Assembly (NCBI GenBank): GCA_902535975.1
Contig: CACAVP010000003.1
Location: 2,533-66,532 of the forward strand
Length of the DNA stretch: 64,000 nt
Reading direction: 5' to 3'
Source: an uncultured Gammaproteobacteria bacterium
Lineage (GTDB): Bacteria; Pseudomonadota; Gammaproteobacteria; GCA-002705445; GCA-002716945
The notes beneath the pieces were generated by a model, which was given only the letters and a program-made list of their open reading frames with translations, had not been told where the DNA came from and searched no databases. The translations under genes and the position numbers were made by a program. Shown in pieces: positions 15,300 to 63,696 of this stretch (its first letter is position 1; every line of letters starts with the position of its first letter).

Positions 15300-16061
15300 T
15301 TATATATAACAGAGGTCAATGACGAATGTAATATCATCTTTGATTTGAATAAATTTATTTTCATCATTTAGAGTCATAAATGAAACTGTTGCTCTTTGTG
15401 GACCAACACTTATGCGAGGAAAAAAATAGTTATCAGAATGCATTGTAATTCTGAGCATCCTCACTTTTTTTTCTGTTTCTAGTTTAAATATGTACATTCC
15501 ATTTTTTGCACACTCTTCTCTAGTCTCTGAACTCTTTCTCAATATATCAAGGCAAAAATGAACAGAATTCTCTATCGGTTTGATTAATTCTAGCCACAAA
15601 TTTATCTGATTTTGCCGGTAGGCATGGTCTCTAGTTAACCAATAATCTAGTTCAGAACTTATAGTGTCACAATGCTTTACACAATGTTGGAATAGTTCAT
15701 CTACGTGAAGATCATTTAAGTAATTTGCTTTAAGATTATGTAATGTATTTAATATAACGGACTGTTTCTCCATGATCGAGTTTAATTTTATTTTATCTGA
15801 GCCCTCGATCTTTACGTACTCTGAGTATCTAGACTTATGAAAATCTATTTCTCTTATCAATTCTCTTTTAACTTCAGCTCTGGACATTGTTTGATATAAA
15901 GCTACGAGACTATTCAGAGCAGCAAATGAATCATAAATAGTATCAATCTCTTTATGCTTATTTATCTTTAAAAAATAATTTTCAAGTTTTAGAAACTTTC
16001 TTATACGCTCATCTACAGGCTCTTCATATATTGCTGCATGATTGTCTGAAAATGTATTCAT
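15300..16061 (-). CDS. zapD: Cell division protein ZapD (FtsZ-binding)
   Basis: 253 aa. The N-terminal IYEEPVDERIRKFLKLE and the C-terminal YFFPRISVG...FVIDLCYI follow the ZapD/YacF pattern. The coaE-zapD operon order matches E. coli. Confidence 0.8.
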   Translation of the reverse strand: MNTFSDNHAAIYEEPVDERIRKFLKLENYFLKINKHKEIDTIYDSFAALNSLVALYQTMSRAEVKRELIREIDFHKSRYSEYVKIEGSDKIKLNSIMEKQSVILNTLHNLKANYLNDLHVDELFQHCVKHCDTISSELDYWLTRDHAYRQNQINLWLELIKPIENSVHFCLDILRKSSETREECAKNGMYIFKLETEKKVRMLRITMHSDNYFFPRISVGPQRATVSFMTLNDENKFIQIKDDITFVIDLCYI

Positions 16062-39057: not shown

Positions 39058-40032
<975 letters not shown>

Positions 40033-40078
40033 CATGATGTCATGGATGGATAAGGAGAAATTGGTAGGTAACAAATAA

Positions 40079-61137: not shown

Positions 61138-61809
61138 ATGCTTAATCAAAATTATAATGAAAAAGTAGTCATGCATTCGTCATGTTTAGAATCAATCTCG
61201 TCGCCATGCTCAGGTGTAAAGAGGACTTTGCTTGAAAGAAGTGAAGATAGTGAATATGCAGTTTCTACAACATTGGTAGAATTTAAAGCCGATTCTTTTT
61301 TTGATGAGCATATTCACGACTATGGAGAGGAACTTTTTGTGCTAGAGGGAACTTTTTCTGATGAGTCAGGTGATTATACAGCTGGTACATATATTAGAAA
61401 TCCTCACAACTCGAGACACAAACCATTCAGTAGGGAAGGCTGTAAGCTTTTTGTAAAGTTAAGACAGTTTGATAAATCAGATAGTAAGAGAGTTATTGTT
61501 AATACTGAAAATAAAACATGGTTGCCTGGATTAGTAAAAGGACTGGAAGTTTTACCTCTCCATAACTTTGAGCATGAAAACACTGCACTAGTGAAATGGG
61601 ATGCTAACACTCAGTTTAATTTACATCGTCACTATGGTGGCGAGGAAATTTTTGTAATCGAAGGAACATTTTATGACGAGCATGGCAGTTATCCAAAGTA
61701 TACTTGGATTAGAAGTCCACACATGAGCCAGCACGCGCCATATACACTTAATGATGGTGCTGTCATATTTGTTAAAACTGGTCATCTACTTAAGAAGATA
61801 AATGAATAA
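61138..61809 (+). CDS. Bicupin protein (ChrR-type cupin domains, no anti-sigma N-domain)
   Basis: 223 aa with two internal repeats of H.H..GEE.FV.EG.F.DE.G.Y......R.P..S.H.P. It has no zinc-binding anti-sigma domain. Confidence 0.7.
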   Translation: MLNQNYNEKVVMHSSCLESISSPCSGVKRTLLERSEDSEYAVSTTLVEFKADSFFDEHIHDYGEELFVLEGTFSDESGDYTAGTYIRNPHNSRHKPFSREGCKLFVKLRQFDKSDSKRVIVNTENKTWLPGLVKGLEVLPLHNFEHENTALVKWDANTQFNLHRHYGGEEIFVIEGTFYDEHGSYPKYTWIRSPHMSQHAPYTLNDGAVIFVKTGHLLKKINE

Positions 61810-63376
61810 TAAAATACTCGCTCTTAAATATCGTCCTAAGTTCTTTAATGAAGTTATTGGACAAGATTTTTGTGTTCAATCTTTAGCTAACTCAATTAAT
61901 TTGAATAAATTGCATAATGCATATTTATTTTCTGGTACCAGGGGTGTTGGTAAGACAACTATAGCAAGGATATTTGCAAAATCCTTATTATGCAAAGAGG
62001 GTATTTCTGAGAGTCCATGTGGAAAATGTGAGTCTTGCCTAGCAATAGACAATAACAATAATCTTGATTTGATAGAAATCGATGCTGCATCTAGAACAAA
62101 GGTAGAGGACACAAGAACACTGATGGAAAATGTTCAATATGCACCGACATCTTCAAGATTCAAGATTTATCTAATAGACGAGGTTCATATGCTGTCTACA
62201 AAAAGTTTTAATGCACTACTTAAAACGATTGAGGAACCTCCTGCGCATGTAAAGTTTCTTCTAGCAACTACAGATCCGGATAAACTTCCAGAGACAGTTA
62301 TATCAAGATGTCTACATTTTAAGCTTGAGTCAATTACAAATGATACTCTCTCTAATCACATCAAGAAAACTCTCGAAAAAGAAAATGTTAAATTTGAAGC
62401 TGAGGTACCAGACATGATTGCTGAGTGCGCAAGAGGTAGCGCACGAGATTCAATGAGTATTCTTGAACAATGTATCTCATACGCCAATGAAAACCTAACA
62501 ACTGATAAAATCTCACACCTTCTGGGTATAATTGATGAAAAAATAATCGATGAGATTGTCAGAAATCTCCTTATTAAACGACTAGATAATATAACAGACC
62601 TTATGGCAACAAATGAGATTCATGATTACTCTAAACTCCTAGACCGCATAACTGAACGAATATTTCAAATCTCAATATCTCGTCAAACAAATAAAAACGC
62701 ATATAACTTACCTGAGCTTTTTCTGGAATGTGTAATTAAGCTTGAGGATTTACAATTATGGTATTCATTACTTCTTCAAGCCAAGGAGGATTTTTATAGC
62801 GCACCATCAAAAGCTGATCATCTTCTTATGATTTTTCTTAGAATAATGCTATTCACAGAGTATCCAAATTCTGATGATATAAAACCTATACTTGAAGAAA
62901 CAACAAGTATAGATAGGATTAAAAAAGAAGAAACAACAGGTGAAGATAAGATTAAAAAAAAAGATGAACTTTTCAATGATATAGGTAACAAAGAGCTCAA
63001 TATATCTTTTGAATCCTGGGCTGCTTTTGTAAATGCACAAGATCTAAAAGGCCTTATGTTAGATTTAGCACAAAATTCATTTATTGAAGTGACGACTGAT
63101 TCCGCAATCCTTTTAGTTGATATTTCGAAAAAAAATATGTATCCAAAAAAATGTGTTGCTGATTTCCTTAATCTTTTATGTAAACACTTTGGAATTGATG
63201 TCGATGTATTAATAGAACATACAGAACAAGTTTCAACGATCTATAAAAAATCTGTTGATGAAAATATCAAATCAAAAGAAGATATGTACGATTCAATTAA
63301 AGATAACAATATTATTAAGGATATTGAAGATATATTTGATGCTAAGATAGATAAAGATAACATAAGTAAATTATAA
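61802..63376 (+). CDS. dnaX: DNA polymerase III subunit tau (with candidate gamma recoding site)
   Basis: 524 aa with an AAA+ clamp-loader core (GTRGVGKTT, zinc module CGKCESC, DEVHML, SRC motif). Confidence 0.94.
   Translation: MNNKILALKYRPKFFNEVIGQDFCVQSLANSINLNKLHNAYLFSGTRGVGKTTIARIFAKSLLCKEGISESPCGKCESCLAIDNNNNLDLIEIDAASRTKVEDTRTLMENVQYAPTSSRFKIYLIDEVHMLSTKSFNALLKTIEEPPAHVKFLLATTDPDKLPETVISRCLHFKLESITNDTLSNHIKKTLEKENVKFEAEVPDMIAECARGSARDSMSILEQCISYANENLTTDKISHLLGIIDEKIIDEIVRNLLIKRLDNITDLMATNEIHDYSKLLDRITERIFQISISRQTNKNAYNLPELFLECVIKLEDLQLWYSLLLQAKEDFYSAPSKADHLLMIFLRIMLFTEYPNSDDIKPILEETTSIDRIKKEETTGEDKIKKKDELFNDIGNKELNISFESWAAFVNAQDLKGLMLDLAQNSFIEVTTDSAILLVDISKKNMYPKKCVADFLNLLCKHFGIDVDVLIEHTEQVSTIYKKSVDENIKSKEDMYDSIKDNNIIKDIEDIFDAKIDKDNISKL
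62894..62959 (+). repeat. Two tandem imperfect 33-bp copies inside dnaX (EETTSIDRIKK / EETTGEDKIKK)
   Basis: Copy 1 (62894-62926) is gaagaaacaacaagtatagataggattaaaaaa. Copy 2 (62927-62959) is gaagaaacaacaggtgaagataagattaaaaaa. Confidence 0.85.
62954..62962 (+). promoter_or_regulatory. A9 slippery tract in dnaX (candidate -1 frameshift / transcriptional slippage site)
   Basis: The A AAA AAA heptamer is in the X XXY YYZ phase. The -1 frame reads AGA UGA immediately afterwards. An SD-like AGGUGA ends 10 nt upstream. Confidence 0.45.
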
Positions 63377-63387
63377 CGGAGAGCAAG

Positions 63388-63696
63388 ATGGGCATGTTTG
63401 ATAAAATGAAAGAGGCTAAAAATATGTATAGTAATATTAAGAAGGCTCAAAACGAAATAAATAAAATCCAAGTTGAAGGAGTATCTGGCGCAGGTGCAGT
63501 AAAGGTAGTAGTGAAGGGTAATCATCAAATCGTAAGTATTTCTATTGATGAGGAAGTATCAAAAGGAAATAAAAAAATACTCGAGGATTACATTGTTGCA
63601 GCGTGTAATGATGCGATGAATAAATTAGAAAAAGAAACTAAAGAAAAAATGGGAAGCGTAATGAATTTACCTGGAGGTATGAAGCTCCCATTCTAA
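63388..63696 (+). CDS. ybaB: YbaB/EbfC nucleoid-associated protein
   Basis: 102 aa. The dnaX-ybaB-recR order is conserved, and the sequence shows the typical coiled pattern (VKVVVKGNHQIVSISID). Confidence 0.88.
   Translation: MGMFDKMKEAKNMYSNIKKAQNEINKIQVEGVSGAGAVKVVVKGNHQIVSISIDEEVSKGNKKILEDYIVAACNDAMNKLEKETKEKMGSVMNLPGGMKLPF

Follow-up and report, generated by a model that had tools for sequence, protein, structure and literature searches.

Two ways of obtaining a short clamp-loader subunit from a single dnaX gene serve as the reference for the locus described here. The dnaX cassette of Escherichia coli consists of the heptamer A_AAA_AAG with an upstream Shine-Dalgarno (SD)-like AGGGAG and a downstream stem-loop, and in Thermus thermophilus gamma is reportedly made by transcriptional slippage on a run of nine A (A9), a finding attributed to Larsen et al. 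in 2000. The slippage run of Thermus is accompanied by stops in both of the other frames (PMC1088944, PMC5009743). Related arrangements include the two-ORF (open reading frame) dnaX genes with A7-A10 runs listed by Antonov et al. 2013, nine of them with A10 (PMC3711429), and the poly-A tracts of the AT-rich endosymbionts Blochmannia and Buchnera, one of which lies in Blochmannia dnaX (PMC3017870). The dnaX gene considered here is located in a window of 64,000 nucleotides (the whole stretch of DNA analysed, from contig CACAVP010000003.1 of assembly GCA_902535975.1) belonging to an uncultured marine gammaproteobacterium, and it carries an A9 run between the clamp-loader domains and the polymerase-binding domain that is retained across the genus. 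Some form of tau/gamma recoding very probably takes place at this run, and on balance we favor the interpretation that it is a conserved, selected recoding site at which length-dependent slippage of the Thermus type is the most likely route.

The dnaX gene (61802..63376, forward strand) appears in the ORF list as a single ORF of 524 amino acids encoding a tau-like full-length product. Its Pfam matches are DNA_pol3_delta2 (residues 21-178), the clamp-loader ATPase lid (184-229) and DNA_pol3_tau_5 (403-521). Alignment with PDB sequences places residues 2-351 on E. coli DnaX 2-359, corresponding to domains I-III as crystallised in gamma, and residues 401-522 on E. coli tau 518-641, corresponding to the Pol III alpha-binding domain V, with the region coding for domain V spanning 63002..63367 on the forward strand. 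The proposed slip site is the A9 run at 62954..62962 (+), codons 385-387 AAA AAA AAA (KKK), which is positioned 34 residues beyond the part aligned to domain III and 14 ahead of domain V, and A_AAA_AAA at 62956-62962 is the sole perfect in-phase heptamer within it. The -1 frame ends at TGA (62965..62967, +) after one sense codon, AGA (62962-62964), and the +1 frame ends at TAG (62982..62984, +), 7 codons past the run; the zero frame remains open to 63376 and encodes domain V. The predicted -1 product has 388 amino acids and ends in ...IKKKR, with domains I-III complete and domain V missing. The positions given in an earlier, sequence-only reading of the window agree with the sequence when it is read again: the dnaX start, codons 385-387 and the heptamer phase, the -1 slip into AGA and TGA with a product of about 388 amino acids ending past the clamp-loader core, the +1 closure after 7 codons, and an AGGTGA at 62938-62943 ending 10 nt before the A run are all right. 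Minus-strand ORFs of 60-63 amino acids across the slip site were dismissed as AT-rich noise. The genome is a metagenome-assembled genome (MAG) with a completeness of 75%, made up of 30 contigs totalling 0.82 Mb, and the window has a GC content of 33%.

The relatives used for comparison are MAGs and single-amplified genomes of uncultured marine Gammaproteobacteria, drawn from a GTDB genus of 13 species within a family of 37 species having genomes of ~1 Mb. A run of A9-A12 is present at the same place in the linker in each of the 12 further species of the genus whose dnaX could be located, with A9 in G008, G010 and G011, A10 in G003, G002 (two copies), G007, G006 and G012, A11 in G005 and G004 and A12 in G001. 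A scan of metagenome contigs gave a further view of the genus, with 25 genus-level sequences (at least 61% identity) spanning the linker, 24 of which carry A9-A12. The A run and the nearby -1 stop, whose conservation the sequence-only reading had named as a check on its proposal, are kept through the genus. The distinct sequence contexts number 31 and comprise nine with A9, 16 with A10, four with A11 and two with A12; a run shorter than nine is seen in no genus sequence except one contig (L167), although seven in phase would suffice for the ribosome to shift. The 31 contexts also differ in the phase of the run. A DnaX tree resolves at least five deep lineages, every one of which has the run.

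The gene is split in two of these relatives. In G004 (L022/L078, G004:C2:489571-491125) an extra frameshift occurs at residue 265/266, and in G010 (G010:C3:106952-108484) extra frameshifts occur in three places. G004 is a nanopore assembly polished with Pilon, and the splits in both species are probably homopolymer errors; neither gene was used for frame arguments. No record was found when further, independently assembled copies of this DnaX were sought by exact protein match.

The surroundings of the run are not conserved. The DnaX proteins of the genus are 62-86% identical overall, and nucleotide identity in the linker falls to 0.28 ahead of the run and 0.40 past it, compared with 0.74 and 0.69 in the flanking domains, the linker being essentially unalignable outside the run. 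This pattern points to selection on the homopolymer itself in an otherwise free-drifting linker. Many runs in the genus reach A10-A12 by taking A's from adjoining Ile, Leu, Ser, Val and Asn codons. In G008 the sequence reads GTA AAA AAA AAG, with AAG as the last codon of the run; the A missing there is made good by the A of the preceding GTA codon, so that the length of A9 is retained. The genomes of the genus contain only 2-7 A/T runs of at least 10 each, both strands together (13 in one nanopore assembly), and in eight species the dnaX run is among them. The off-frame stops are likewise more frequent than local sequence predicts: a -1 stop within at most one sense codon is found in 25 of the 31 contexts, roughly a threefold excess over the null of 0.22-0.28 (22-24% of positions genome-wide, 28% in dnaX linkers), and a +1 stop within at most 7 codons in 30 of the 31, about twice the null of 0.46-0.52. 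The codons that yield these stops differ between contexts and include GAT GAA, GAT AAG, AAT GAA, ATT GAA and AAT AAA.

The other long runs of the window behave differently from the dnaX run when syntenic regions from seven relatives are aligned to the A8 and A9 runs of the window. None of the other four alignable coding A9 runs is kept at nine or more in all relatives, and the aligned A9 control runs have lengths of 2-7 in the relatives with one A9 only. Among all A8 and A9 control runs of the window genes, with the two dnaX runs excluded, five run-relative pairs reach at least nine, three of which belong to zapD. The zapD run is an A8 at codon 197 (15465-15472, minus strand) encoding LETEKKVRM in a conserved part of the ZapD domain; three relatives have A9 there and one has A7, and no other control run remains long from species to species. 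A second run within dnaX itself, at codon 443, is conserved at A7-A9 owing to the conserved KK that it specifies in domain V, and there the distance to the -1 stop ranges from 2 to 23 codons.

The weight lies on this comparative evidence; the features of the dnaX site within this one genome are mostly unexceptional at 33% GC. The 64-kb window contains six A9 runs, and the sense strands of the 787 long ORFs of the genome contain 47 A9 and two A10. Shuffling of synonymous codons gives an expectation of 55.0 for A9 in coding sequence (ratio 0.86) and 18.4 for A10 (ratio 0.11), and for A11 and longer none are observed compared with ~12 expected. The homopolymer cut-off in the coding sequences of the whole genome is therefore sharp, with A6-A9 at or above the shuffle expectation and A10 and longer nearly purged; T9 is likewise depleted in coding sequences (5 observed, 14 expected). 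The avoidance threshold starts at A10 and not at A9, so that the A10-A12 of the relatives lie beyond it and the A9 of this species is borderline. Lysine is encoded by AAA in 76% of cases in this genome, from which it follows that a KKK would be A9 only ~0.44 of the time in each independent lineage.

The mechanism that we favor is as follows. RNA polymerase would add or drop an A on the homopolymer, and the mRNAs with an altered number of A's would then be translated in the ordinary way to the nearby out-of-frame stops. One extra A would give a protein ending ...KKKR at TGA 62965, and one A fewer or two extra would give ...KKK(K)MNFSMI, ending at TAG 62982. One dnaX gene would in this manner provide tau (524 amino acids) together with a truncated gamma-like subunit of ~388 amino acids that keeps domains I-III without the polymerase-binding domain V. 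The same ...KKKR end would also result from a -1 shift of the ribosome on A_AAA_AAA (62956-62962), which may be a contributing route; the ribosomal share could be larger in this species, where the run is only A9. The genome has a single tRNA-Lys(UUU), and the SD-like motif may help such a shift here. The run, the stops, the conservation of both and the position between the domains are observations, and slippage, with its level and efficiency, is inferred. A length-dependent and two-directional process is suggested because the run is at least nine and not seven long, its phase is free, both alternative frames are closed and such lengths are purged elsewhere. The sequence-only reading had itself mentioned the A9 run of Thermus as an analogy, and on the length, phase and frame closure of the run this analogy fits better than the E. 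coli cassette it had put forward. The Thermus-like interpretation is the best fit, as yet an unproven one.

Programmed -1 frameshifting of the E. coli type as the main route, in which A_AAA_AAA, AGGTGA, a weak hairpin and TGA 62965 together form the cassette, is in our estimation unlikely. The sequence-only reading proposed exactly this layout, and its identification of a tau/gamma recoding site is supported by the conservation of the run and -1 stop and by the domain position, whereas the label of an E. coli-like cassette is not, the stimulatory elements being unsupported. The heptamer is in phase, and in the distance to the -1 stop, one codon, the site matches E. coli exactly. In the genome as assembled, at 75% completeness, ARAGORN identified one tRNA-Lys (ttt) and none with ctt; a single tRNA-Lys(UUU) is a requirement of the E. 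coli mechanism. The SD-like AGGTGA (62938..62943, +), a 6-nt complement of the anti-SD, is separated by 10 nt from the run and by 12 nt from the in-phase heptamer; a 6-mer of this kind is expected in a 7-position window with a probability of only ~1.4%, and three of the 47 coding runs of at least A9 have one upstream. However, no relative has AGGTGA at this position, which makes the motif specific to this species, and any SD core is found in 2 of the 31 contexts, which is about background, so that the stimulator and spacing described by the sequence-only reading are not kept. The motif arose within a tandem duplication of 33 bp (62894..62964, +; 2.2 copies, period 33, 86% matches in TRF) encoding EETTSIDRIKK / EETTGEDKIKK, the second copy of which bears the motif and ends in A9 and the first of which ends in A6, leaving an out-of-phase AAAAAAG. 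The duplication is private to this species, with the closest relative G008 having a single copy, and an origin of the slip site from the duplication was rejected because the run predates it and is present genus-wide. The role of AGGTGA is uncertain. The sister species G008 carries the exact A_AAA_AAG heptamer, and within the genus the heptamer has a final G in G008 and G010 alone. The AU-rich hairpin downstream (62972..63013, +; arms 62972-83 and 63001-13) does appear in the minimum free energy (MFE) fold as the sequence-only reading drew it, but with an MFE of -7.1 kcal/mol, a z of +0.76 and 154 of 200 shuffles folding at least as well it is weak, and there is no conserved structure to mark it as a stimulator. 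Folding of 45- and 60-nt downstream windows in 13 sequences of the genus gave no consistent signal (MFEs of -1.3 to -9.5 kcal/mol, z inconsistent); G008 and G010 alone keep a comparable stem, a 9-bp AU stem (z -1.0 to -2.1), and in these two species conservation extends to the protein. The fold test is a weak one, in that relatives with the canonical cassette also give mixed z-scores, but the absolute stabilities here are very low all the same. An Rfam scan at permissive E-values found no DnaX frameshifting element here or in six relatives with the canonical heptamer, and it is uninformative, the model being too narrow, because these six positive controls are unmatched too. True cassettes of the E. 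coli type are clearly in use in more distant gammaproteobacteria, namely in the dnaX of Neptuniibacter, Amphritea, Motiliproteus, Porticoccus and Halieaceae, where A_AAA_AAG is joined by a conserved G-rich SD-like motif upstream and by a -1 stop one codon on (few exceptions). A bare dnaX heptamer shifts ~14-16% in vitro (bioRxiv 10.1101/2025.10.02.679949), but A_AAA_AAA is less shift-prone than A_AAA_AAG in E. coli (PMC5009743). What this route leaves unexplained is that the run is never seven or eight long, that the +1 frame is closed as well and that A10-A12 are retained.

A somewhat smaller probability is given to there being no recoding at all, with a conserved KKK motif or an inherited feature of an AT-rich genome and chance stops accounting for the site. 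The near-expected number of A9 runs in the coding sequences, the frequency with which codon usage alone turns KKK into A9 and the prevalence of -1 stops within one codon are all in keeping with this, as is the observation that other conserved Lys pairs give conserved A7-A9 runs, for example at dnaX codon 443 and in zapD, and that other genera of the family do without such a run. Set against it, the rest of the linker is unconserved, the runs exceed three Lys codons to reach lengths nearly absent from other coding sequence, AAG is avoided within the run, and the off-frame stops are enriched three-fold (-1) and two-fold (+1) over the local nulls. Runs of A9-A10 are moreover found at the same place in dnaX genes of 47% and 57% GC from other families, where AT bias provides no explanation. 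The least probable of the routes considered, and in our view a very improbable one, is sliding of the ribosome on poly(A) in either direction to the out-of-frame stops. Sliding is length-dependent and bidirectional and would fit both the closure of the two frames and the preference for long runs, but in E. coli extracts it is robust at A11 and weak at A9-A10 (PMC4363877), the lengths found in 25 of the 31 contexts including this window. Slippage of RNA polymerase on the homopolymer remains the interpretation we prefer.

Several observations weigh against slippage of this type or against its importance in this species. A9 is not avoided genome-wide, and RNA polymerase slippage at A9 is probably modest here, since otherwise the 46 other genes with A9 would suffer, a point in favor of the ribosomal route; the species is at the weak end of the run-length range of the genus. 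Off-frame stops are frequent in AT-rich DNA. The 31 contexts are phylogenetically non-independent, forming about 5-10 deep lineages, and cannot be counted as 31 independent trials. Contig L167 (64% identity) lacks the run, having A6 within an in-phase A_AAA_AAC. No run of nine or more A's is present in the dnaX linker of the other five genera of the family, from which it follows that the second product is not indispensable. Homopolymer lengths in the MAG may also contain errors, as an A8 run interrupts the frame of another gene of the window, ilvC (39067-40032), and cuts it short. At that place ilvC is A6-A7 in five relatives, which encode a conserved tail; this tail continues here in the +1 frame to TAA 40076-78 (window 40017-40078). 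The ilvC frameshift is either an error in homopolymer length in the MAG or a genuine indel, which slippage might then rescue.

Other dnaX genes of the family and class show several further arrangements. The A7 runs around codons 334 and 343 in other genera of the family were set aside as ordinary Lys pairs inside domain III. One member of another genus of the family (L020, genome G028) has AAA AAA AAG at dnaX codons 358-360, providing an in-phase A_AAA_AAG within A8G in the linker and a -1 stop one codon on; this heptamer is unseen in other members of that genus and may be an independent site of the E. coli type. In other gammaproteobacterial families, A9-A10 is located directly after domain III: A10 at 47% GC in G049 (L052, codon 367), A9 at 57% GC in G054 (L058, codon 373), and A9 in marine 'Legionellales' MAGs (L081, L089, L206-L208, L213, codon 368). 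The -1 stop is within 2 codons in G049 and G054 and within 6 in the marine MAGs, and the +1 stop is within 2-11 codons. Runs of this length are very unlikely to have arisen by chance at 47% and 57% GC. A class-level relative, G057 (L065, G057:C2:210400-212386), has a two-ORF dnaX with A9 at codon 441, a zero-frame stop 3 codons past the run that closes a gamma-like ORF of 445 amino acids, and domain V in the -1 frame, an arrangement in which tau would need a slip. In the window itself, dnaX is followed by ybaB (63388-63696) and then by recR (63702 onward).

The dnaX A run reveals no new mechanism; the site is a new example of a known trick, as in Thermus and E. coli. With it, a marine gammaproteobacterial genus that is free-living and genome-streamlined joins the few lineages with an inferred poly-A tau/gamma dnaX, and together with its relatives it brings the three known layouts into view within one class: the E. 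coli-type cassette, the single ORF with an A run and the two ORFs with an A run. A rule for annotation also emerges, in that coding A runs of 10 or more are nearly purged in such genomes and the few that remain are candidates for use. A more speculative idea, to which we assign a low probability, is that the length of the run (A9-A12) within the genus acts as an evolutionary dial for the tau:gamma ratio, and that the A9 subclade (this genome, G008 and G010) is moving from polymerase slippage to ribosomal frameshifting. The traits of the subclade that bear on this are the A_AAA_AAG of G008 and the SD-like motif gained in this species through the 33-bp duplication; if true, this would be a live interconversion of two recoding mechanisms at one site.

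The closest resemblance is to T. thermophilus dnaX, with a single tau ORF, a sense-strand run of nine A, near stops in both alternative frames, a short product without the C-terminal tau domains and no requirement for an SD-like motif or hairpin. The settings differ, as the genome here is that of an AT-rich (33% GC), ~1-Mb marine gammaproteobacterium whose genes often contain A9, the relatives of this species use A10-A12, and the site is placed about three-quarters through a short tau of 524 amino acids with essentially no domain IV; slippage, described for Thermus, is predicted here. The E. coli dnaX shares the gene, the purpose, the position after domain III, an in-phase A-rich heptamer with a -1 stop one codon on, the single tRNA-Lys(UUU) and, in this species alone, an SD-like motif 10 nt upstream. 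In contrast with E. coli, the heptamer here is A_AAA_AAA inside a run of at least nine, the SD-like motif is not conserved and there is no significant stem-loop. The two-ORF dnaX genes (PMC3711429) have a poly-A of 7-10 at the tau/gamma junction, and in both cases slippage is inferred from sequence alone; there tau requires the shift, whereas here the zero frame gives tau and slippage would give gamma. The endosymbionts (PMC3017870) are similar in having AT-rich, reduced gammaproteobacterial genomes with a homopolymer in dnaX for which slippage is invoked. Their tracts, however, carry frameshift mutations that slippage may rescue, a sign of erosion, and the Blochmannia dnaX tract is downstream of the gamma site, whereas in the present genus the frame is intact and the tract appears to be conserved under selection.

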